Assembly (NCBI GenBank): GCA_963830365.1
Contig: CAWHMU010000028.1
Coordinates: 1 to 47,074 of the forward strand
From: an uncultured Chlamydiae bacterium
Lineage (GTDB): Bacteria > Chlamydiota > Chlamydiia > Chlamydiales > Parachlamydiaceae
Reading direction: 5' to 3'
DNA: 47,074 bases
The notes beneath the pieces were generated by a model. That model made no database searches. It was not told the origin of the DNA and saw nothing but the letters and a program-made list of their open reading frames with translations. Numbering within the stretch: position 1 is the stretch's first letter; each line of letters opens with the position of its first letter. This document shows positions 10,604 through 36,438 of the stretch, in pieces. The translations under genes were made by a program, and so were the position numbers.

Positions 10604-11755
10604 ATGTTTCCTAATTCAAGCTACGCTTATCCACCTTCAGCGCCACCAGAATACGAGATGAACTGGGAGCAGCCATCTCCTCCATCGCCGCCACCCTCAT
10701 ATTCGTCCCATTTTCCACCGCCAAAACCGGCGGGGAATGCGACCTTTGGACGTGATATAAATCTAAAAGATGATTGCGTCATCTGCTTGAATCAGCTGTC
10801 TGCCCGTGCTGAAGATGATCCATCGACAAAGCTTGAAGTCGCGCAGCTTAAATGCAAGCACGTCTTCCATAACTTCTGTATCCAAAACAATATGAAGAAT
10901 GGACAACCCGGCTCCAAAGACAATTGTCCGCTGTGCCGCGCAAAGATTGATAAAGTCGCCCTGGCTGTGATTTCGCTAGGCAACGCACCAGCGCCAGTGA
11001 AGCCGGCGCCGGCTCAAAAACCGCCTGCGCAGCCAACTTTTGGTCGTGATATAAATCTAAAAGATGATTGCGTCATCTGCCTGAATCAGCTGTCTGCCCG
11101 TGCTGAAGCTGATCCATCGACAAAGCTTGAAGTCGCGCAGCTTAAATGCAAGCACGTCTTCCATAACTTCTGCATCCAGAACAATATGAAGAATGGACAA
11201 CCCGGCTCCAAGGATAACTGCCCGCTATGCCGCGCAAAGATTGATAAAGTCGCCCTGGCTGTGATTTCTCTGGGCAACGCGCCAGCGCCTGTGAAGCCTG
11301 TGCAGCCTGTGCCGGTAAAGCCGATACAGGCACAGCCAAAACCTGCTGCCGATGAAGGGGTAAATCTTGCAGAGATAGCAGGAAATGCTCTTTGGGGCAT
11401 AGGAAAAGGTCTATGGTGGGGGTTAAAAGCGGGCGGAAAGGCTGTGGCTTTTGTTGGATCCACCGCCATCGATGCTTTAACGCCTGCGCCTAAAACCGTC
11501 AAATCGGTCGAAGAGCATAGCGTTAAAGTTGTCAGGACCGTCCAGACCGCCCATAAAGACATGCTTAGGTTGCTGGGTACTCAAAAAGAGCGTATCGAAG
11601 TATTGGTAGCTCAAGTGCTTAGTTTGGCTGCCAGAGATCCTGAAGGCGCCGATCAGCTGCTGACAGAGATCGACCGTGAAATGTATCAATGTAAACAAGC
11701 CGTAGTACTGGCCAATGATGTATTTGAGAGGAATTTGTCTAAGAAGTTATCCTAA
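10604..11755 (+). CDS. tandem RING-H2 finger protein with PPxY motifs (candidate E3 ubiquitin ligase effector)
   Basis: Two copies of C-x2-C...C-x-H-x2-H-x2-C...C-x2-C; N-terminal PPEY and PPSY. Confidence 0.88.
   Translation: MFPNSSYAYPPSAPPEYEMNWEQPSPPSPPPSYSSHFPPPKPAGNATFGRDINLKDDCVICLNQLSARAEDDPSTKLEVAQLKCKHVFHNFCIQNNMKNGQPGSKDNCPLCRAKIDKVALAVISLGNAPAPVKPAPAQKPPAQPTFGRDINLKDDCVICLNQLSARAEADPSTKLEVAQLKCKHVFHNFCIQNNMKNGQPGSKDNCPLCRAKIDKVALAVISLGNAPAPVKPVQPVPVKPIQAQPKPAADEGVNLAEIAGNALWGIGKGLWWGLKAGGKAVAFVGSTAIDALTPAPKTVKSVEEHSVKVVRTVQTAHKDMLRLLGTQKERIEVLVAQVLSLAARDPEGADQLLTEIDREMYQCKQAVVLANDVFERNLSKKLS
10742..11299 (+). repeat. intragenic direct duplication, period 294 bp (RING domain x2)
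   Basis: 10742-11005 aligns without gaps to 11036-11299. Confidence 0.95.
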
Positions 11756-11927: not shown

Positions 11928-14255
11928 ATGCTAAGTAACTTGTTCAGACAACTCCCTTGGCAGGGTTTTTCAAAGCACGATATAAAAAAAATCGGGCTGG
12001 TATATCTGATCCTAATGCTTCCAGCCATCGGATTTGTGCTCGGCCTAAGTTCAATCAATGCCATGCTGATTAAGCGCTTAGGCGTCCAGTATATGCCATA
12101 TAGCTATATCACGCTGGCTTCTTGCAATATTTTCGGAACGTTCTTCTTTTTGCAGTATGCCGACAAGATTTCGCGTTTAAAGCTGCTGGGAATCTTAGCT
12201 GGATGTGCCGGCCCTATTTTGCTCTTTGCCAGATTTTTGGCCCCCACCATGGCGGTAGATATCACCGGCTTTACCTGGGGTTTGCTTGCATTTTTTGGCC
12301 TTACCTATCTTGTGCATGGCTTTTTCACCTCGGCTTTAAATGTCCAGGCGTTGTCGTTGCTAAATGATATATTCAGGCCCAGTCAGCGCAATCGACTATT
12401 TGCTTTTTTCAGTTCGGCCTGGGTCATCGGCGGCATGACCGGAGGCTTTTTAATCCGCCTGTTAGTGCCGTTGGTGGGTGTCGTCAACATCATCCCGCTG
12501 TGGGGTTGCCTGTATTTGTGCATTATTCCCTTGGCATGGGTATTTCATCGAAATTATGCTGGAGAGTTGCGCTGGAGTCCTCCCGCTAGAGATGCGAAGA
12601 ATAAGGGACATCAGCTGGACCAACTAAAAGATGCTTTCCGCTACATCAAAAGTTCCAAGATCTTATGGTATATCGTTGCAATGCCGTTGTTGTACAATAT
12701 TGTAAATGCGATGCAGGACTATCAGTTCAGCCAGGTGATGAATGCCTCATATGATACGGAGGCGGCGCTGACCCAGTTTTTCGGTTCATATACGATCTTG
12801 TGGAATGTTACAGCCATCATATTACAGCTCACCATAGCTTCTAAGGCGTTACTTTGGATCGGCATCTTCCGGGGTTTTTTTGTGTTGCCGGCAGTGACGT
12901 TGTTAGCCTTTGTTTTTTTGCTGGTCAATTTCGGCTTTTGGGAGGGGTTGTGGCTGCGTTATGGGTGGAATATACTCAGTGTGACGATATATTTCAACGC
13001 CATCCAACATTCCTATTCGGTCATCCCTCAAAATTTCCGCGGGCGCATACGGGGCTTTAATAGCGGTATTGTCAATTCGATAGGCACCGTATGCGGAGCT
13101 TTGATTCTGATTATTTTTCATCTCGTGTTTATGGCAGGGACTTTTTGGCAACACATCATACCAACCCTTGGCGGTATCGCCTGCTGCGCGATATGGCTGT
13201 ATGTGGTGATGCGTGGACGCGGTGTCTATATCCAAACACTGATCAGCAATCTCTATCAAAAGGATTACAATACCAGGGCAGAAGCCTTGGAATCGATGGA
13301 AGAGAGAAGGGAGCCTGTCATTCATGAGGCGCTTAACTCGATCCTGTTGAATCCCGAGGAAAGCGGTAATATAAAAATCAAATCGAAAGCCATGAAGGTG
13401 CTGTCGCGGCTAAGCAATTCAGATTCGTTGCGCACGCTATCTTTATTTCTTAAGGATCCAGAACCCCAACTGCGCTTGAATGCCATCAAAGCCATTTCCC
13501 TTTTTAAGAAGATATCGAATTATCCCTTTGCGTTGCATTATCTGATGTCGGAGATACAAGAGATTTTCCAGCACGATCCTTCCCATCATGTACGTATTGA
13601 GGCCGGCAGATTTTTGCTTAATTTCCTACCCAAAGATGAGCAGCCGAAATTTATCGAAGAAATACTCAATCACGCTGACCGCAGCATCCGCATCATGGCC
13701 ATACAAAATATCGATCTATTAAATATCGAACTCATTGATATGATGGTCATTGGGAAATTGAATGACCCGGATGTCGCGGTACGCAGCGAAGCGATTATGG
13801 CGCTTTGGAAATTTACCAACTATAGGTTGATTACCTCTGCTGCCATCCGCCGCTTATTGCAATCGCAAGATACCGAAGAGGTGAAATATGGCCTTATCAC
13901 GCTGATACGGCTGGGCACACCGGCAGAGTATTTGATGGAAGTGCAACCGCTGGTAGCGATTAAAAACCATTTAATTAAAAGCTTAGCCTGCATTTTTTGT
14001 TTGTCTTCGCTGTCTCCAGGAACGGAAGAGTGGCAGGCCATGCAAAATGCCTTGATTGAAACGCTGGCCGATCCTAGCTATCCGGAAGCTGACCGCAAGC
14101 AATTTGTGGGCTATATCCCCAAATTCAAAGATGAAGCCATCGATGCCATTTTAGAGGGTTTGCAGGAGCTCAGCATGGAGAAGCGCGCCATCGCGACGGC
14201 AGGCATCGAGAATTTTGCCGAGTTGCTCTATAAAAAAATCATCAACGAGTCTTGA
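11928..14255 (+). CDS. NTT/TLC-like MFS transporter domain fused to HEAT repeats
   Basis: About 12 TM helices with NDIFRPSQRNRLFAFF and YSVIPQNFRGRIRGF, followed by HEAT-like repeats (LKDPEPQLRLNAIKA, LNDPDVAVRSEAIMAL). Confidence 0.75.
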   Translation: MLSNLFRQLPWQGFSKHDIKKIGLVYLILMLPAIGFVLGLSSINAMLIKRLGVQYMPYSYITLASCNIFGTFFFLQYADKISRLKLLGILAGCAGPILLFARFLAPTMAVDITGFTWGLLAFFGLTYLVHGFFTSALNVQALSLLNDIFRPSQRNRLFAFFSSAWVIGGMTGGFLIRLLVPLVGVVNIIPLWGCLYLCIIPLAWVFHRNYAGELRWSPPARDAKNKGHQLDQLKDAFRYIKSSKILWYIVAMPLLYNIVNAMQDYQFSQVMNASYDTEAALTQFFGSYTILWNVTAIILQLTIASKALLWIGIFRGFFVLPAVTLLAFVFLLVNFGFWEGLWLRYGWNILSVTIYFNAIQHSYSVIPQNFRGRIRGFNSGIVNSIGTVCGALILIIFHLVFMAGTFWQHIIPTLGGIACCAIWLYVVMRGRGVYIQTLISNLYQKDYNTRAEALESMEERREPVIHEALNSILLNPEESGNIKIKSKAMKVLSRLSNSDSLRTLSLFLKDPEPQLRLNAIKAISLFKKISNYPFALHYLMSEIQEIFQHDPSHHVRIEAGRFLLNFLPKDEQPKFIEEILNHADRSIRIMAIQNIDLLNIELIDMMVIGKLNDPDVAVRSEAIMALWKFTNYRLITSAAIRRLLQSQDTEEVKYGLITLIRLGTPAEYLMEVQPLVAIKNHLIKSLACIFCLSSLSPGTEEWQAMQNALIETLADPSYPEADRKQFVGYIPKFKDEAIDAILEGLQELSMEKRAIATAGIENFAELLYKKIINES

Positions 14256-27982: not shown

Positions 27983-28014
27983 CTCAGACTCCGGTCAGAC
28001 TCTTATTCGGACGT

Positions 28015-28126
28015 GGGGTCAGGCCTGACATGCTGACATTCGACTAGGCTGGCAGGTACAAGGCTAGAGGTTTAGGTAGGCAAAATGAGCATCGTTTTGC
28101 CTACCCATCCATTCCTAGGCATGTAG
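28015..28126 (+). repeat. GGGGTCAGG REP plus conserved long hairpin, copy 1
   Basis: GGGGTCAGGCCTGACATGCTGACATTCGACTAGGCTGGCAGG then GGTAGGCAAAATGA-gca-TCGTTTTGCCTACC; related copies near 34792 and 36168. Confidence 0.75.
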
Positions 28127-28138
28127 AATACCACAATA

Positions 28139-28405
28139 CCAAGCCTGACCCCATGTGTGACCCCATGTGCTGACCCCATGTCCTGAGGCTCATCACGCAA
28201 ATGAGTACCTATGAGGTTTTCCTGACCTTCTCTGTGCCTCTGTGGTGAAATCTGCTTTCTGGCGGTATAGTATTATTAATCAAAGCGTTACGAAAGACTT
28301 CACCACCGAGGCACAGAGGCACAGAGAAGGGAAATGGAGATTGCTCTTAGGGTTTTGTTAATTAGGTACTCATTTGCGTGATGAACCATGTGCTGACCCC
28401 ATGTC
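28139..28405 (+). repeat. tandem 12-13-bp CCTGACCCC-derived array interrupted by a MITE
   Basis: CCAAGCCTGACC CCATGTGTGACC CCATGTGCTGACC CCATGTCCTGA[MITE]ATGTGCTGACC CCATGTCC. Confidence 0.85.
28187..28387 (+). mobile_element. 201-bp MITE (family B)
   Basis: TIRs GGCTCATCACGCAAATGAGTACCT / AGGTACTCATTTGCGTGATGAACC; flanks ATGTCCTGA / ATGTGCTGA. Confidence 0.9.
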
Positions 28406-28424
28406 CAAATAAAGGAAAATTGAC

Positions 28425-29438
28425 ATGAAAGCAAAAAAACGTTCACTTGTCTTTATTATGCTGTGCATGTGCCACTATATTTCATTTTCGGTTTACGCCA
28501 TCAGCCCTTTTGAAAAACATCCCCAGGATGCTACCGTCATTTATCTTAGAGGCACGTGCTCTTCTGGCAAATCTACTCTTATTCGATCTATCGTACAGGA
28601 ATGTGATTTAGAACTTGTGGATGAAGACTCAATCATGCAGAGAAGCTACCTCGAAGCTGTTGCCCTGCGATTCCCTTGCAAATTTATCATAATTAACAAA
28701 GCAGTGGCTAGAGAAAATCTCTACCATGCACTCCGAGAAAAAGATATTCTTTTTAAAAAAACAGCTTCCCTTGAGGACTCCCAAAAAGCTAAAAATGCTT
28801 TATGTGAAATTCAAGAAGAATTAAATAATCCACAAAATTTACTTTGGAAGAAGGCATTAAGCGATGGAATCAATACAGAAGTAATACAAAGACTTAAAGA
28901 GGCTATCGAACGGCGAAAAAATGTCATTCTCGATTCTTGGTATGTCAAAGAACATCATATCCAAGAACTTTTTCCGAATGTACAAATCATCCGAGTCTTG
29001 CTATATTGTTCTCTTCCTGTTGCTTATAATCGGCTTCTTAAAAGGAATGAAGAGGCTATTGATAGGGAAAATCTTCAGGAAAAAAGGTATTTAAGGCAAT
29101 TATTTGGCAGCTTTACCGCGCTTTATCAAATCAGTGATCAGCCACTGCAACCTATTCACAGCATTTATAGGCATGAATTAGATCAGGTTTTTGACGCTAT
29201 TTTACTTCCACTCAAAGATATAGCGTACCAGAAACCTATCTTCACTTTTGAAGAAATTACACGACCACTGTTTATGAAAATGAAAATGGCGTTTTTACAA
29301 CCGTTTGACGAATGCAAATCGGAAAATTTATATATCGCTCCAAAAAACGCGCAGGATGTTATTATTGATAATACAAGTAATAATATTCAAAATGCCGTCC
29401 ATTCTTTAAAAAAAGCCCTTTCAAAGCAAAAGTCGTAG
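28425..29438 (+). CDS. P-loop NTPase/small-molecule kinase-like protein with a possible signal peptide
   Basis: VIYLRGTCSSGKST Walker A, NVILD Walker B-like, LYCSL..AYNRL..RN lid; hydrophobic N-terminus ending VYA. Confidence 0.7.
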   Translation: MKAKKRSLVFIMLCMCHYISFSVYAISPFEKHPQDATVIYLRGTCSSGKSTLIRSIVQECDLELVDEDSIMQRSYLEAVALRFPCKFIIINKAVARENLYHALREKDILFKKTASLEDSQKAKNALCEIQEELNNPQNLLWKKALSDGINTEVIQRLKEAIERRKNVILDSWYVKEHHIQELFPNVQIIRVLLYCSLPVAYNRLLKRNEEAIDRENLQEKRYLRQLFGSFTALYQISDQPLQPIHSIYRHELDQVFDAILLPLKDIAYQKPIFTFEEITRPLFMKMKMAFLQPFDECKSENLYIAPKNAQDVIIDNTSNNIQNAVHSLKKALSKQKS

Positions 29439-29699
29439 CTATACGAATCGAAGAACATTTCTAAGCAACGTCATCGGAAAAATTCTAATTCCAAACCCCT
29501 GCTTTTATACGAGCATCTAGTTGAAATTTCCCAAACGCGGGGGCAGGCCTAGGCTGTCAAAAAGCTCAATATTCTATCTCAACGACTTTTTTATATATGC
29601 GTCTGTTTCTCTTCCGTTCAAAATTGCTATCAGCATCTAAAAAAGCTGTGAAATCCAGGCAAAATGGATCCCATATGGCGGTTCAGGCCGAAAGATTGT

Positions 29700-30750
29700 G
29701 GTCAGGCTTGGTATTCGGGTATTCGTTTCTTTAGTTATTCATTCTTAGAGGATCCTGTAACCAACGGCGCATATCCTCCACGTTCTGGGCAGCTGTTGGG
29801 TTACTGATGACCTTGATTTCGAAGCGGCTTGCAAGTTGTGTTAAAGTACTTGGATCTCTCCCAAGAATATTTGCCAGGCTTGCGAATGAAATATGGTTGG
29901 TTTTTCTCACAAAAAAAGCCAATAGCGCACGTGCAAGGGAATTTTTGGCGTGCTTCCCAGGCATGCACAACTGCTCGTGAGTGATGTTATGAATTTCACA
30001 AACTTTTGTTATAAGGTCAGTTAACTCTATTTTTTTGTGTTTTATTGCGCACGTTGTTACCATAATTTCTTCGACAAATGCTCGATTACCAATCATTCCT
30101 GCAATGCAACCCGATTTAAAGTCGAATTCTGTTTCGACACCAATCCCTTTCAAAACATACCTCTCATAATTTCTGATGACATTTTTGGGTTCGATGTCGA
30201 ATTTTTTCAAAACTCGTTCCTTGGTCAGCCAACTAAATTCGTCTAGTTCAAAATAGGCTCTATGGCTACTCCAAAAGTATTGTAGAGGATCAGACACCAA
30301 TTTTGCACGGACTGGATTAAGATGGATATACCGTATAAGTTCCTTGAGATAATCCTCATCATCAATAAGAATGGATTTGAATCGCCCCTGAAATAGGTGC
30401 CCAATGCGTTTGTACTTTCGATTGATATAACGAGTATAGCGGAAAGCAAGATGCTGCATAATGCGGGAAATGCTTATATCGGCTACTCGCACCGCCAAAT
30501 GGATGTGATTCGACATCATACAAAAAGCTTCAATGCTGTGGCCAAAACGCTCAACACCTTGTTGCATGAGCAGGCACAACCTTGATGTATCTCCCTCAGA
30601 AAAGAAGATAGGTTGACCATCATTGCCCCTGAGCATCACGTGGTAGGTTGAAGTAGGGGAGTGGAATCTTTGTCGTCTTGCTATAATTCAAAGAATTTAT
30701 AGTCAAGCGGGATAGAGCGCAAGGAAAATACCCGAATACCAAGCCTGACC
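29700..30750 (-). mobile_element. RAYT-like element bounded by perfect 24-bp inverted repeats
   Basis: GGTCAGGCTTGGTATTCGGGTATT (29700-29723) is the exact reverse complement of AATACCCGAATACCAAGCCTGACC (30727-30750). Confidence 0.85.
29731..30684 (-). CDS. Y1 HUH transposase (IS200-like / REP-associated tyrosine transposase) with a C-terminal HTH
   Basis: YHVMLRGN, AFCMMSNHIHL (HUH), GHLFQGRFKS, RYIHLNPVRA (catalytic Tyr) and YFWSS motifs; C-terminal ARALLAFF..SFASLANILGRDPST HTH. The conserved N-terminus extends to an ATA at 30684. Confidence 0.92.
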   Translation of the reverse strand: MARRQRFHSPTSTYHVMLRGNDGQPIFFSEGDTSRLCLLMQQGVERFGHSIEAFCMMSNHIHLAVRVADISISRIMQHLAFRYTRYINRKYKRIGHLFQGRFKSILIDDEDYLKELIRYIHLNPVRAKLVSDPLQYFWSSHRAYFELDEFSWLTKERVLKKFDIEPKNVIRNYERYVLKGIGVETEFDFKSGCIAGMIGNRAFVEEIMVTTCAIKHKKIELTDLITKVCEIHNITHEQLCMPGKHAKNSLARALLAFFVRKTNHISFASLANILGRDPSTLTQLASRFEIKVISNPTAAQNVEDMRRWLQDPLRMNN

Positions 30751-30793
30751 CCAAGCCTGACCCCAAGTCTGACCCCAAGTGTGACCCCAAGTG
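30739..30793 (+). repeat. tandem 12-bp REP array (4.5 units)
   Basis: CCAAGCCTGACC x2, CCAAGTCTGACC, CCAAGTGTGACC, CCAAGTG. Confidence 0.92.
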
Positions 30794-31131
30794 CGTACGG
30801 ATCTGTGAGAGCTCATGAGGTGAGATTCCTTTGCGCTACTCGACGTTCTAGCGGAACTGCAATTTAGGCATCTGTTGGAGCATGAGCTTTGGCTAACGGA
30901 AACGGAGGCTAGAAAACTTTTAGTGCCACAGGCTGCCAAATCACGGGGAAGAGAGCCTCAGCTAAATCTAACGAATGCAGGTGAATCGCAGAGCTGACTT
31001 CTTATGTGTTTTATATTGTCTTAAAAAGGCTTAAGGATTAAGTTTTTATCACGGACAAGAAATAGATTTGAAAACATTTTTTGGAATTGAAAGTCAGAAC
31101 GTGACTGCATGTTTATCCAAAGGGGTCATGA

Positions 31132-31359
31132 ATGAATAGAGATGTACTAGGTAGAGCAGAACTTGAAGCGCTTAAATTAAATTGGAATCCTTGTAAAGCA
31201 GGTTTAATGGGTGGACGTTGTGCAGCCACAGGAACCTGTGATAATAGGCCAGAATATAGTGCACGAAAGATCACTAATATAGAAAATCAAAAAATTCATT
31301 TGTTAGGGTATTCAAGGAGTGCTAAAGACATTAGGCTTAAATATGGCCCATTATGTTGA
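31132..31359 (+). CDS. candidate RiPP precursor peptide (75 aa)
   Basis: AAGGGG RBS; ELEAL...LMGG followed by RCAATGTCDN; overlaps the start of the LanM-like gene. Confidence 0.65.
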   Translation: MNRDVLGRAELEALKLNWNPCKAGLMGGRCAATGTCDNRPEYSARKITNIENQKIHLLGYSRSAKDIRLKYGPLC

Positions 31360-32926
31360 TGAAATAAGTGTGCAGGATGGGTTCAGAGCTCAATTTTTCT
31401 TAAGCTCTATAGAAAAAGAATTGAGGAAAATTGAAGATGCTGTAAGTGATCTCATGATCTTTTCTAGAACCATCCAGGAGGTTTTGCAAGAGTTTTCTGA
31501 TTCTCTTGCAACCGAATTAGATCGAATCTTTTTGCCTACGGTAGTTTTTGAGCTGGAGAAGGCCAAAAGGAACGGTGATTTATCTGGAAATTCTGCAACA
31601 GCTCGGTATGAAAGTTTTTTTGTAGATGGGAATAAGTATACTAAACATACATACTCAATTTTGGAAAAATACCCTTTCCTTTTTGAATTATCTGAAAACC
31701 TAATTGTTCAAACGTTTGACTCTCTCCTCAGAAGTCTAAGGAGATATAAAGAAAATGAACTGGAGTTGAAAAAGTGGAATCAATTTCCTCCGAATATTCT
31801 AATTCATAAAATTAAGCCTCTTGATGGAGCGGATCGACATTCTTCTCAACAAACACTTCTCTTTGAATTTTCCAATGGTTTGAAGGTCATTTATAAGCCC
31901 GTTGATCTTAGGCCAGATCTTCTTTTAGCTCGTTTTATTGAAAAGTTAGAGTTACAGGACCCTTTTAATTTGAAGTCTTTAGAGGTTTTTGCCTTACCTG
32001 AATATGGATGGATTAAATTTATCGATTTTGAAAAATGCGAAAATACGCAAGAAATTGAGGATTTTTACTGTAGAACAGGTGTTTTGCTTGCGGTAGCAGA
32101 TAGTCTGAATTATACGGATGGCCACTGCGAAAACTTGTTTGCTAAAAGAGCTTTCCCTATTTTAATTGATGGAGAAACACTATTTCAAAATTACGAACCG
32201 CCTGTTATAGACGATAAAAGCATCCTTACAACCCTTTTAATTCAGAAGATAAATGATCAAGATGAAAATCGTTTTCTTAACTCTGCACTTCAAGCTCCAG
32301 ATGGGATAAAGTATGAGTATTTGAAGACTCATGCTATTCACGATCAAACAGATGATATTGAGGTGCGCTATCAAGGAATTAATGATTCTCCCCATCATCA
32401 TTGCCCTTGGTTGAATGATGAATCTTGCCCTGCTCACAAATATGTTTCTTTTATTATCAAAGGATATTGCTATGGCTACAGAAAGATTACAGAAAAGCTA
32501 GACTCCATTGTTAATGATAAAAACTGGTGGAGGGCTGTTGGTAAAGTTCGTGGGCGTGTTTTGTTACGTGAAACAATTTCTTATGTCTATTTACTGAGGA
32601 ACATACAGCTGCCGGAACAGCTTGTAGCTCGGAAAAAAGCTGAATCGATTCTATTACAAAAACTTGGATCAACCTGTTATAGCCAATACGAAGCGGATGA
32701 TCTTTTGTCATTAAATATTCCGTATTTTTATCAAATTCCAAGAAAAAAACATCTTTATGATAGCAAAGGGTACAAATACCCAAACGTTTTTGGAGAAACA
32801 GCTATTGCTAGATTGAAAAAGCAATTCCTACAGCGAAGTGACAAAAAAATGAATTTTGGTTGCGATATTCTATCTCGACATTTGGTACCGCCTTTTATGG
32901 AAGAATTGGAAATGTCATCAATATGA
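31343..32926 (+). CDS. lanM: LanM-type dehydratase domain (DUF4135) protein lacking the LanC cyclase domain
   Basis: GADRH, VIYKP, YGWIKF, TDGHCEN, ILIDGETLF, RVLLRETISY and NIPYFY motifs; ends at ~527 aa. Confidence 0.9.
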   Translation: MAHYVDEISVQDGFRAQFFLSSIEKELRKIEDAVSDLMIFSRTIQEVLQEFSDSLATELDRIFLPTVVFELEKAKRNGDLSGNSATARYESFFVDGNKYTKHTYSILEKYPFLFELSENLIVQTFDSLLRSLRRYKENELELKKWNQFPPNILIHKIKPLDGADRHSSQQTLLFEFSNGLKVIYKPVDLRPDLLLARFIEKLELQDPFNLKSLEVFALPEYGWIKFIDFEKCENTQEIEDFYCRTGVLLAVADSLNYTDGHCENLFAKRAFPILIDGETLFQNYEPPVIDDKSILTTLLIQKINDQDENRFLNSALQAPDGIKYEYLKTHAIHDQTDDIEVRYQGINDSPHHHCPWLNDESCPAHKYVSFIIKGYCYGYRKITEKLDSIVNDKNWWRAVGKVRGRVLLRETISYVYLLRNIQLPEQLVARKKAESILLQKLGSTCYSQYEADDLLSLNIPYFYQIPRKKHLYDSKGYKYPNVFGETAIARLKKQFLQRSDKKMNFGCDILSRHLVPPFMEELEMSSI

Positions 32927-34701
32927 AAACTATATATTCTGCATACAAAACTTTCTCGTGGTCGCTCAAGCAGCTTTTCAATGCAGCACCATATGAAACC
33001 AGTTTTCTTTTGATATTTGTATTTTTTCAGGGATTGATTCCTGCCGCATCTCTCTATGCGATAAAAGGAATTATCCAGTGGGTAAATTCATCTTTTACAT
33101 TTCCACTTTTATTTGTTGCTCTCTGGGGAGGGATGCTATTAGCGGATATTGTCTTGAGTCCGGTTATTGCTGTAGTTCGGCTTCATTTAAATGAAAAAAT
33201 ATTAAGTTTTTGTAATGTTTTGCTAATGGAGAGGGCACACACAATTCAAGGCTTGAGTTCATTTGAAAACCCAAAGTTCTACGATGAAATCCAATTTTTA
33301 AAAAATGAATCTTCAAAACGTCCGTTAAATCTTGTCTACGTTCTTACTGGGTTCTTGAAAGAAGGTATAGCTCTGTTGTCAGTACAGATAGTTTTAAGTA
33401 CCCTCGAGTGGTGGATTCCGATTGCTATGCTCTTAGCTAGCCTACCTCATGCCTTATCGACTCTTTGGTTTGAAAAGCAGTCATGGGATCAGATGCTTTT
33501 TCGCAGTCCAGAAGCGCGAAAACTAGCTTGGATTGGTTCCTTATCATTAGATGATCATGTTGCAAAAGAAGTCCGTCTGTTCGGTTTTGGGGATTTTTTA
33601 GTACAGCGATATAAAGAATTAGCCAAATCAATGCATCAAGCATTGTCTAAGGCAAGATGGAAGAAATCTGCAGCTTCAGTTTTTTTATCTTCTTTGACTG
33701 TCATTGGTTATGTTTTTATTGTGAGTGTTGTTCTGCTCCAAACAAAAGATAAGAATTTGGAAATAAGTGGTTTAGTTGTTATTATACAATCGCTTGTTAT
33801 GACTCAATCTCAACTGATAGGTTGTATTTCATACCTAGGTATGACAACTCCGATTCTACTTTTTTTTTCCAAGTTACGCTTATTCCTTTTTTCATCGGTT
33901 TGCTCTATTCCAGAAAATCAATCAATGATTTGTCCTGGGTTTCAGCATGAAATTTGCTTTGAAAATGTTTCGTTTTCATATCCGGACGGCCGAGAAGCTC
34001 TTCAGAATGTGAGTTTCAAAATTCAAAAAGGGGAAAAAATTGCTATTGTGGGTCCAAATGGCGCAGGTAAATCTACAATAGTAAAACTCATATTGCGTTT
34101 TTACGACCCCTCAACAGGTTCTATTACTGTGGATGGGCATGACTTAAAGGATATAGACATAATGGCTTGGCGTTCGGTTATAAGTGGTGTTTTCCAAGAT
34201 TTTGGACGCTATCATTTTACGGTGGGTGAAAATATTGCTTTAGGAAATATTAATGCCTCTGAAGAACAGATTTGTCATGCAGCAAAAAAGGGAGGTTTTA
34301 CTCCTATTTTAAAGCAATTGCCCCAAGGATTAAACGCTCTTTTAGGAAAAGAATTTGGAGGAACGTCACTTTCAGGAGGAGAATGGCAAAAATTGGCTAT
34401 GTCACGCGCCTTTCTCCGTGAGGCAAAGTTCTTAATCTTGGACGAGCCAACATCGTCACTTGATCCAGAAAGTGAATTTGAAGTTTTTAATAAATTTGCA
34501 GATGCAGTGCAGGGGAAAACGGCTCTTCTGATCACCCATCGTCTTGGTTCAGCAAAAATGGCTGATAGAATTCTGGTCTTTAAAAATGGTCGTCTGATCG
34601 AAACAGGCTCTCATCAGACGTTACTTAATACACAAAGCGAGTATGCGCTGCTTTATATGTTACAAGCCAATCAGTATAAGCATACAACCAAATCAGTATA
34701 A
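32923..34701 (+). CDS. ABC exporter (TMD+NBD), NisT/LanT-like without a C39 peptidase
   Basis: AKEVRLFG, GPNGAGKST, LSGGEWQKLAMSRAF, ILDEPTSSLD and ITHRL motifs; ATGA overlap with the upstream stop. Confidence 0.92.
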   Translation: MKTIYSAYKTFSWSLKQLFNAAPYETSFLLIFVFFQGLIPAASLYAIKGIIQWVNSSFTFPLLFVALWGGMLLADIVLSPVIAVVRLHLNEKILSFCNVLLMERAHTIQGLSSFENPKFYDEIQFLKNESSKRPLNLVYVLTGFLKEGIALLSVQIVLSTLEWWIPIAMLLASLPHALSTLWFEKQSWDQMLFRSPEARKLAWIGSLSLDDHVAKEVRLFGFGDFLVQRYKELAKSMHQALSKARWKKSAASVFLSSLTVIGYVFIVSVVLLQTKDKNLEISGLVVIIQSLVMTQSQLIGCISYLGMTTPILLFFSKLRLFLFSSVCSIPENQSMICPGFQHEICFENVSFSYPDGREALQNVSFKIQKGEKIAIVGPNGAGKSTIVKLILRFYDPSTGSITVDGHDLKDIDIMAWRSVISGVFQDFGRYHFTVGENIALGNINASEEQICHAAKKGGFTPILKQLPQGLNALLGKEFGGTSLSGGEWQKLAMSRAFLREAKFLILDEPTSSLDPESEFEVFNKFADAVQGKTALLITHRLGSAKMADRILVFKNGRLIETGSHQTLLNTQSEYALLYMLQANQYKHTTKSV

Positions 34702-34729
34702 GAAGATTGAAATGAGGTCACATTGAGAT

Positions 34730-34962
34730 AGGGTCAGGTTGGTATTTTAGTATTTTCTTGCGAGGAATATACCAAGGCTGACCTCACACTCGGGGTCAGG
34801 CCTTACATTCTGACATTTGACTAGGTTAGCAGGTGCAAGGGGCCAAGGCGATAGACATGCAAGATGAGGATCATTTTGCACACCTATCGTCTTGACCCTT
34901 TGCGTTTTTTATAAAACATTGGAAATTTGAACACGGGGCCAGGCTTTACATGCTGACATTTT
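34730..34962 (+). repeat. REP cluster with conserved hairpin copy 2
   Basis: AGGGTCAGGTTGGTAT...ATACCAAGGCTGACCT palindrome, GGGGTCAGGCCTTACATTCTGACATTTGACTAGG plus hairpin, and GGGGCCAGGCTTTACATGCTGACATT. Confidence 0.8.
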
Positions 34963-35003
34963 CCTTGTTATCATAGTCACTGCTCATTATGTTCATGATA
35001 ATC

Positions 35004-35292
35004 ATGGCAAGACGACAGAGATTCCATTCACCAACTTCTACCTGCCACGTTATGCTTAGGGGTAACGATGGACAATCCAAAACAATCCCAGGCGCGCGCA
35101 TTACTGGCTCTTTTAGTCAGAGAATACGAGGGTCTCTCGCTTGAAAGTCTTGCAAAGCTTCGAGGAAGAGATGCAAGCGGTCTGACTAAACTAGCCAACC
35201 GTTTGGAAATTAAGAGTACGCAAGATGAAATACTTGCTCAGCAAGTGACGGAAATGTGTCGTTGGTTGTTGAATTCCGCTTGCGCAGCCTAG
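35004..35292 (+). pseudogene. internally deleted copy of the RAYT-like transposase
   Basis: ATG 35004 encodes MARRQRFHSPTSTCHVMLRGNDGQ, almost identical to the intact copy's N-terminus. It is joined out of frame to the C-terminal HTH (ARALLALLVR..SLAKLRGRDASGLTKLANRLEIK) and followed by GCCTGACCCC. Confidence 0.9.
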
Positions 35293-35371
35293 AATGTCAG
35301 AATCTCATGCCTGACCCCGGGCACAAAGACTTATGGAAAAAAAATAGAACGTATAACTGAAAAGGCAGCAT

Positions 35372-35917
35372 ATGAAAGAATCGTTTAAGAAATATTGGAT
35401 ATATTATTTAGCTTTCATCTTTTTTATTTTAGGCATGTTCTATTATAGCAAAGCTTATGCATATGATCATTTCGCATATGACCATGAAGGAAATGCCTAC
35501 TGTTTTCAGCATCCCTTAGCTATAAAACACATGGATATGTATCTCGAGATGCAGCACATAGATATGCATCAGCTTCGTGCTCTTGCTCATCATGATTGCA
35601 AGACAAACGCTCAAAAAGTTCAATTTTACAATGAAAACGGAGAGCGTTGCTCCAAAGACACCAAAGATAGATGTTAGTGGTTACCAAATGTATCTGAAAG
35701 GGATAAGGCGCGTTATTGCTTTTCAACCTTCGGTATTTTAGCTACTCCAGGAGAGCCTAGATCTAAAATTATTATCGCAGTAATAAATGCCCTTATTCAA
35801 TACGGATTAGATTGTAGCGATGAATGGCACTACATAAATAATAAGCTTTATTGGAGCCAATATCACTTTGAAATGATGGAGTTTCATCAAGATCTAATAA
35901 AACACGGATATCCTTGA
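35372..35917 (+). pseudogene. hypothetical exported protein interrupted by an in-frame TAG
   Basis: Signal-peptide-like N-terminus; after TAG 35675-35677 the same frame stays open for 79 codons (WLPNVSERDKARYCF...HGYP*). Confidence 0.65.
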
Positions 35918-36084
35918 CCCCTTGTCGTTACCCACAACTATCAATCAAATAATTTAAGTTATTTTTTGCAGAGCCATTTCCATTCGATCGCGCATGTCTT
36001 GCAGTCTAATCCAGCCTTTCCAGATTTTTTGCCATCCCGGATTTCCGTCCGATTTCCGTGCTAAAAACCCTCCTAACATAGCAC

Positions 36085-36263
36085 TCGGGGTCAGGTCTGA
36101 CATTCTGACATTGAACTCGGGGTCACAACTCGGGTTCAGGCCTGGGCTGTCAAAAAACTCTGGATAAGGCCTGACATTCGACTAGGTTAGCAGATGCAAG
36201 GGCCAGGGCGATAGGTTTGCAAGATGGGAATCATTTTGCGCGCCTGCCGCTCTGGCCTTTTGT
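36085..36263 (+). repeat. REP cluster with conserved hairpin copy 3
   Basis: CTCGGGGTCAGG, CTCGGGGTCAC and CTCGGGTTCAGG, then CTGACATTCGACTAGGTTAGCAG plus hairpin. Confidence 0.8.
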
Positions 36264-36438
36264 GTGCTTGTTTTTAATAAGTTTTTGGCTCTGGCGCGGG
36301 CACGAAAAGTGGACCATATGGACTAAATAGGCTATATGGACAACAGCTAATGGACAGGCAAATGCCATATTTTGGGCACGGGCAGGCTGATACTATAGTG
36401 GAAGTCTGTGCATAATTGGAACAGGGCTGTGTGCTGCG

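Follow-up and report, generated by a model that had tools for sequence, protein, structure and literature searches.

The stretch of DNA analysed here, which we refer to as the window, comprises 47,074 nucleotides of contig CAWHMU010000028.1 from an uncultured member of the Parachlamydiaceae (assembly GCA_963830365.1). Our subject is a cassette of three genes on its forward strand. The first (31132..31359, +) encodes a precursor peptide of 75 residues made up of a leader, an internal core, a linker and a follower. The second (31343..32926, +) encodes a stand-alone LanM-type kinase/dehydratase of the DUF4135 family, 527 residues long from its ATG and carrying no cyclase domain, while the third (32923..34701, +), conserved together with the enzyme gene, encodes an ATP-binding cassette (ABC) exporter of 592 residues with a membrane domain and an ATPase but no peptidase domain. 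All three reading frames are intact. A preliminary description of this DNA had reported three overlapping, AT-rich genes, with a 17-nucleotide overlap between the peptide and enzyme genes and an ATGA overlap between the enzyme and exporter genes. Its coordinates are correct, and the GC content of the cassette (36.8%, compared with 48.6% for the genome) lies below that of all 744 windows of the same size. The start of the enzyme is uncertain, given that its homologues mostly begin near Val10 (GTG at 31370), and thus the 17-nucleotide overlap holds only if the upstream ATG is used. An ATG-AAA-TAA mini-frame (31359-31372) overlaps the stop codon of the peptide gene and lies two bases before this in-frame GTG; since many homologous enzymes begin with Met-Lys near the mini-frame, the ancestral start may have moved through a small insertion.

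The dehydratase and its precursor peptide

In Pfam searches the enzyme matches DUF4135 only (E-value 7e-55), with no match to LANC_like, and it covers just positions 2-519 of the 932 positions of the LanM model TIGR03897; the next gene starts at its stop codon. The enzyme thus ends, as had been proposed, before a LanC cyclase would begin. Alignment likewise bears out the LanM kinase motifs YKP, DxHxEN and IDxET and the R-x5-T pair, and adds the elimination pair D164/H166, which the preliminary description did not list. Nine residues of CylM that have been named for phosphorylation and elimination (D252, H254, K274, D347, H349, N352, D364, R506 and T512; PMC4550811) correspond, as read off the alignment, to D164, H166, K185, D259, H261, N264, D276, R405 and T411 of the enzyme, and each is kept in 97-101 of the 101 relatives shorter than 700 residues. 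Non-catalytic positions such as R15, D60, P65 and Y89 are also invariant in the clade to which the enzyme belongs, and the enzyme is under purifying selection. An AlphaFold model of the enzyme (predicted local distance difference test score, pLDDT, 91) was matched by Foldseek most closely to LicM2 and CylM, with template modelling (TM) scores over the dehydratase half of 0.77 and 0.74 respectively, followed by phosphoinositide 3-kinases; an ESM Atlas search with a homologous enzyme returned DUF4135 clusters only. The dehydratase domains of LanM proteins are the main site of leader binding and are active when excised (PMC12537861), and residues 1-625 of CylM, without the remainder of the protein, still dehydrate (PMC4550811). 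Given that the elimination residues are intact here but altered in EmbM, the cyclase-less enzyme of the phospeptin system, dehydration is the chemistry to be expected of this enzyme by analogy with the biochemistry of CylM.

We compared 31 distinct precursors, of which 22 came from loci and nine from a protein search without gene context. In the window peptide, residues 1-26 (31132..31209, +) form the predicted leader, with a conserved acidic/hydrophobic EL..LK..W element, and residues 27-36 (31210..31239, +) occupy positions 1-10 of the aligned core register. A C-terminal follower element, I..YG.L (31318..31353, +), is conserved in the chlamydial and Calidithermus-type precursors; it was present in 24 of the 27 distinct precursors found first and absent from four found later. 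Three distant precursors stop 1-4 residues past core position 10, which delimits the core and marks the chlamydial tail as a follower, probably a second recognition site for the enzyme. The idea of a minimal operon for a peptide made on the ribosome and modified after translation (RiPP), built on a cyclase-less dehydratase, is supported, while the internal position of the core and the C-terminal element had been missed. Across the family the core consists of ten central residues of the form [ST][ST]x-C-C-A-[ST]-G-T-C. That of the window keeps Cys30, Thr33, Thr35 and Cys36, with Gly-Gly in place of Ser/Thr at positions 1-2 and Ala in place of Cys at position 5. Seven Simkania-type precursors (loci L005, L023 and L036; proteins P0219, P0220, P0222 and P0224) retain the leader and follower around a variable segment with a single Cys that replaces the core, an arrangement suggesting that different cores can be fitted into the leader/follower frame.

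The peptide gene is genuine and under purifying selection, with a ratio of nonsynonymous to synonymous substitution rates (dN/dS) of 0.10-0.25 in nine of 13 pairs, the other four pairs being saturated. Its AlphaFold model contains only two short helices, at residues 8-13 and 64-71, and is of low confidence (predicted TM score, pTM, 0.21). None of the 20 precursors scanned matched a Pfam or NCBIfam family above the cut-off, an ESM Atlas search with a homologous peptide gave no match above 0.75, and the genome holds no second copy of the precursor. A strict core pattern, sought in 3.45 million six-frame residues, matched only the window gene and one chance frame within a transposase region.

Our main evidence on the fate of the core is the way in which its cysteines accompany particular Ser/Thr residues, hereafter termed acceptors. 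Among 24 cores, Cys4 occurs with Ser/Thr9 in 20/20 cases, Cys5 with Ser/Thr at both positions 1 and 2 in 19/19, and Cys10 (or 12) with Ser/Thr7 in 18/18. Conversely, all nine sequences without an acceptor are also without the matching Cys. These joint losses affect positions 1-2 and Cys5 in the subgroup of the window, position 7 and Cys10 in the L003 group, and position 9 and Cys4 in L024. There were six cases of an acceptor lacking its Cys and none of the reverse, and every alternative Cys-acceptor pairing met exceptions within the first 20 cores. The core cysteines are conserved across several phyla; which pair is present varies by lineage (4+10, 4+5 or 5+10), and nine cores have three Cys. 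Four precursors found later keep all acceptors, and so fit the pairing but cannot test it.

Such co-occurrence is what thioether pairing predicts, and favours rings over a linear product. Of the two outcomes envisaged in the preliminary description, a linear peptide or one cyclised non-enzymatically, it is thus the ring option that gains and the linear option that recedes. In the window peptide the predicted rings are Thr33-Cys36 and Cys30-Thr35, while fully loaded members would carry three rings, at positions 1-5, 4-9 and 7-10. The 7-10 pair would give a ring of the same size as nisin ring B.

Relatives of the cassette and the search for a cyclase

A length-limited search returned 35 relatives of the enzyme, 30 of which are 498-544 residues long, with alignments spanning 93% or more of the query. 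In an unrestricted search, the best 68 of the 150 relatives listed are all of 586 residues or fewer (some being fragments), with full-length LanM proteins appearing only further down. A midpoint-rooted FastTree phylogeny of 179 dehydratase domains, a set that does not contain PoyF, AerF, HomMD or EmbM, places 101 short proteins and one full-length LanM in one clade with support of 0.99; five short proteins branch outside it. Whether the closest homologues carry a LanC had been set beforehand as a test of the proposal, and these short relatives do not. Judged from these sequences, the cyclase-less clade is old and intact, and we reject a recent truncation on account of the short closest relatives, the depth of the clade and the purifying selection. 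Two proteins show other arrangements: P0110, a full-length LanM of 911 residues with LANC_like present, is nested within the cyclase-less clade, and P0032 consists of a partial DUF4135 fused to an ABC exporter.

We counted 23 distinct loci whose enzyme belongs to the clade. At 21 of these, a homologous small open reading frame (ORF) directly adjoins the enzyme gene, and the other two have only 175 and 0 bases of upstream DNA; conservation of the small ORF had been set as a further test. In 17 of the 23, the enzyme or peptide gene has an ABC exporter homologue as its immediate neighbour. As for the other six, two contigs stop inside the enzyme gene, one locus has an exporter of another type, and no exporter was present in the available DNA of the remaining three. 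This tally leaves out L010, whose enzyme (487 residues) falls outside the clade and for which no precursor was found, the three remnants (L048/L081, L053/L082 and L083) and duplicate copies of loci. L007 and L008 have the enzyme gene split over two ORFs, and L003 has a split ABC gene, perhaps through frameshifts or assembly errors.

The cassette is not confined to chlamydiae. Its carriers include Parachlamydiales, Simkania, Calidithermus, an actinomycete metagenome-assembled genome (MAG) and alphaproteobacterial MAGs. A small plasmid of Helicobacter pylori holds the complete peptide-enzyme-ABC unit, and a plasmid of Bacillus mycoides also carries the family; both enzymes join the clade (support 0.94) with all catalytic residues kept. 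The B. mycoides member (L085 4756-7974) is divergent and has the same Cys/Ser-Thr spacing, and the gene after it encodes a pyridoxal phosphate-dependent (PLP) aminotransferase rather than an ABC exporter. Plasmid carriage is also seen in chlamydiae, where pPNK of Protochlamydia naegleriophila (L084 5622-7749) bears a cassette remnant, a short ORF and an ABC exporter gene, beside an Rhs gene. These plasmid members came to light through the enzyme, as a tblastn search of plasmids with a short precursor found nothing; the viral contigs searched held no relative.

Within the host phylum the distribution is patchy, with an unbroken enzyme gene in seven of 401 genomes, a split gene in one and a remnant in three. 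Sampling of other groups yielded 1/68, 1/3, 2/301 (one a full-length LanM) and 3/401 (one full-length). Many chlamydial genomes also encode ORFs of 490-570 residues (L050, L052, L054-L060 and others) whose match to the profile is confined to its kinase part (approximately positions 100-275, E-values 1e-7 to 1e-22), possibly a separate family resembling lipid kinases. The statement in the preliminary description that RiPPs are not typical of chlamydiae is not supported for environmental chlamydiae, given that full-length LanM proteins occur in 11 of the 401 sampled genomes of the phylum and that RiPP-like and lanthipeptide clusters have already been reported in environmental chlamydiae, Parachlamydiaceae among them (PMC9666466). 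A class II entry in Data S10 of that paper is a hybrid thioamitide cluster.

No LanC, C39, S8 or YcaO protein, nor any other tailoring gene, was found among the 33 window ORFs scanned, in keeping with what had been noted for the vicinity of the cassette. We searched the genome, whose assembly is 82% complete, with a profile of 55 LanM C-termini; this gave a best E-value of 0.2 and no LanC, while the same profile found 20 full-length LanM loci. An earlier Pfam search of the genome for LanC was also empty, but lacked a working positive control. The C-terminal profile found no LanC at any of the 23 related loci, and LANC_like was absent from eight of nine other cassette-bearing genomes in a Pfam search whose positive control worked, such that, counting the genome of the window, LanC was not found in nine of ten. 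The H. pylori plasmid has no cyclase within the stretch examined.

A search of the rest of the genome for a LanC or a leader protease had been proposed as a check: the assembly holds no LanC that we could find and no S8 protease, but it does hold an unlinked NHLP-type bacteriocin export locus (G000:C36 48112-57393; L087). This comprises a C39-ABC gene above the TIGR03796 cut-off, a second ABC gene, two HlyD-like genes and one TolC-like gene, and no precursor was identified there. We considered whether this exporter might cleave at the Gly-Gly of the window peptide. However, Gly-Gly precedes the core in only three of the 24 cores, all from the subgroup of the window, and because it is not conserved in the family this idea was not adopted.

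Proposed chemistry and its rivals

The cassette resembles several known systems and matches none of them. Like the class II synthetases (CylM, PDB 5DZT; LicM2, PDB 6ST5; TIGR03897), it combines a lipid-kinase-like dehydratase fold (TM 0.74-0.77) and the same nine catalytic residues with a core rich in Ser, Thr and Cys and an ABC exporter. In contrast to them, it has no zinc cyclase in the protein, in the locus or in most of the genomes, its core lies within the peptide and, in chlamydiae, ahead of a follower, a double-Gly leader end is not the rule, no leader protease (C39-ABC or S8) is clustered with it, and the precursor falls in no Pfam or NCBIfam family. Going by its sequence, the cassette would do the work of a class II synthetase's first half, but it does not belong to class II. 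Class V lanthipeptides are made by separate kinase and lyase proteins and a cyclase, whereas the cassette has one DUF4135 enzyme only. Closest in layout is phospeptin, from 'Ca. Eudoremicrobium malaspinii', where the precursor EmbA stands beside a single cyclase-less DUF4135 enzyme, EmbM. EmbM, however, is without the elimination His (His254) and has Ser for Thr512, both of which are intact here as H166 and T411, and the EmbA core is Cys-free and its product phosphorylated, while Cys is conserved in the core of the cassette (PMC9259500). PoyF and AerF of the proteusins, and HomMD ('LanMD') of the daptide hominicin, are likewise single-domain DUF4135 Ser/Thr dehydratases, but they play an accessory part in clusters that encode several enzymes and yield linear products (PMC12749797); in the cassette the enzyme gene is the sole modifying gene, and the Cys of the core are conserved and paired. 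CcaM, the LanMbC enzyme of the dehydrazoles, is a DUF4135 enzyme from a cluster other than a canonical lanthipeptide cluster; it carries a fused class III cyclase-like domain and depends on azoles made by a YcaO protein (PMC10676384), neither of which the cassette has. We found no description of the family in the open literature, a coverage that excludes most subscription chemistry journals, which are a frequent venue for RiPP discoveries. This is a real RiPP family, apparently undescribed, whose enzyme is a LanM dehydratase without a cyclase.

The best reading of these results, and one whose chances we put at about even, is that the core is dehydrated and then forms thioether rings without a cyclase, a reading that draws on the covariation and on known substrate-templated motifs. 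The stand-alone enzyme would bind the leader, and the follower where there is one, then phosphorylate and dehydrate Thr33 and Thr35. Cys36 and Cys30 would add to the resulting dehydrobutyrines by thia-Michael closure, with no LanC taking part, and so tie the peptide into a small knot of two methyllanthionine rings. The substrate sequence would drive closure, and the dehydratase would assist by keeping the core fixed between two bound ends. Export of the product would fall to the ABC protein, and any removal of the leader and follower to unlinked proteases. Extended to the family, this would be a cyclase-free class of lanthipeptides, in which a LanM-type dehydratase and a ten-residue self-templating core yield an interlocked thioether knot of two or three rings, the chlamydial follower clamps the core, and mobile DNA has spread the cassette among intracellular symbionts, H. 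pylori and soil bacteria; for this fuller account we judge the chances to be a little short of even.

A number of results weigh against ring formation without a cyclase. Non-enzymatic formation of methyllanthionine is reported to be much slower than that of lanthionine, both acceptors in the window peptide are Thr, and this peptide has lost the self-templating motif; it is on these grounds that we keep other explanations in play. The papers cited for that motif concern how it steers stereochemistry in enzymes that contain a cyclase. The covariation reflects three independent loss events only, and the pairing was chosen after the data had been seen. A disulfide is conceivable too, since none of the 24 cores has fewer than two Cys. 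The Simkania-type precursors keep the frame of the peptide around a segment with only one Cys. The genome of the window is incompletely assembled, and another genome with the cassette, G314, encodes a LanC domain at a different place. The two closed genomes in which no LanC was found have precursors of the core-less type, which makes the closed-genome evidence for the absence of LanC weaker than it looks.

Several of these points would be accommodated if the core were dehydrated but formed no thioether, leaving a dehydro-amino-acid peptide whose Cys are free, disulfide-bonded or metal-binding. No cyclase was found, uncatalysed addition to dehydrobutyrine is slow, at least two Cys are always present, and the known stand-alone LanM domains PoyF, AerF and HomMD just dehydrate. 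Such a product would, however, leave unexplained why each Cys is lost jointly with a particular Ser/Thr, and fits poorly with a Cys pair that shifts between lineages, with the nine cores that have three Cys and with the single Cys of the Simkania type; we consider it unlikely, though a serious contender. It is rather improbable, in our view, that the rings form through an unrecognised or unlinked catalyst. This could be a LanC encoded in DNA missing from the assembly, an enzyme of the host, or the dehydratase domain itself acting in a new way, for instance by letting Cys displace phosphate directly. The gaps in the assembly, the LanC domain of G314, the slowness of unaided Thr-derived acceptors and the clade-invariant non-catalytic residues would all suit such a catalyst, but LanC was not found in nine of the ten cassette-bearing genomes searched, and the small H. 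pylori plasmid holds the three-gene unit with no cyclase in the stretch examined.

Phospeptin itself raises the prospect that the enzyme stops at phosphorylation and makes a phosphopeptide, given that it has the same minimal layout and that a sequence-based prediction of dehydration failed there (PMC9259500). Set against this are the two residues that EmbM has lost and the enzyme of the cassette has kept, and the absence of Cys from the EmbA core, and we think this outcome improbable. Lastly, the relatives include split genes and remnants (L007, L008, L048 and L053), as would be expected if the cassette were a class II lanthipeptide cluster that had been truncated recently or was decaying, and made no product. 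We give this very little credence: the best 68 of the 150 listed relatives are all short, the clade is deep, peptide and enzyme are both under purifying selection, and the frames of the window are intact.

Should ring formation in the absence of a cyclase be confirmed, the family would constitute a lanthipeptide class without a cyclase and a natural, selected instance of lanthionine formation without one. It would also bear on how far the substrate, rather than the enzyme, sets the ring pattern, and would offer a two-gene tool for peptide cyclisation. A large lanthipeptide survey was anchored on LanC-like proteins (bioRxiv 2020.03.13.990614), and because it starts from these, a LanC-free family would have been missed. 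As to its role, the exporter and the patchy, mobile distribution lead us to guess at a secreted antimicrobial or signalling peptide directed toward co-resident microbes. Some environmental chlamydiae protect their amoeba hosts from co-infection (PMC9666466), and the cassette is a concrete candidate for a secreted peptide in these organisms.

Flanks of the cassette and neighbouring genes

Outside the operon, to its left, lies a gene resembling those for transposases associated with repetitive extragenic palindromes (REP-associated tyrosine transposase, RAYT; 29731..30639, -), with matches to Y1_Tnp (E-value 5e-13) and, below the cut-off, to NF047646 (E-value 2e-17). Between this gene and the cassette is an array of REP-like repeats (30719..30792), whose family occurs genome-wide, and a repeat search found further REP-like repeats on the right flank (34782..35319), together with a RAYT remnant (35026-35268). 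The repeat family has 68 core matches on 25 contigs and, with the RAYT gene and the remnant, brackets several AT-rich inserts, the cassette included (window 28000-36270). Three more RAYT-like genes lie on other contigs of the genome. The low GC content of the cassette, taken together with the flanking REP-like repeats and RAYT genes, points to its horizontal acquisition. A scan for promoters and terminators gave no more sites than were found in shuffled sequences.

Also inside the bracketed region is a P-loop kinase-like gene (28425-29438; AAA_33, with a weak CPT match), of which no counterpart was noted next to related cassettes in the ORF lists inspected. The host is chlamydia-like, in that its genome contains three strong matches to TLC ATP/ADP translocase genes and an OmcB-like match below threshold. 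Elsewhere in the window, a gene at 11928-14255 encodes HEAT repeats fused to a transporter resembling those of the major facilitator superfamily (MFS) and the TLC family, and another at 10604-11755 encodes two eukaryote-type RING fingers (Pfam zf-rbx1/zf-RING_2), a candidate for a host-directed ubiquitin ligase.

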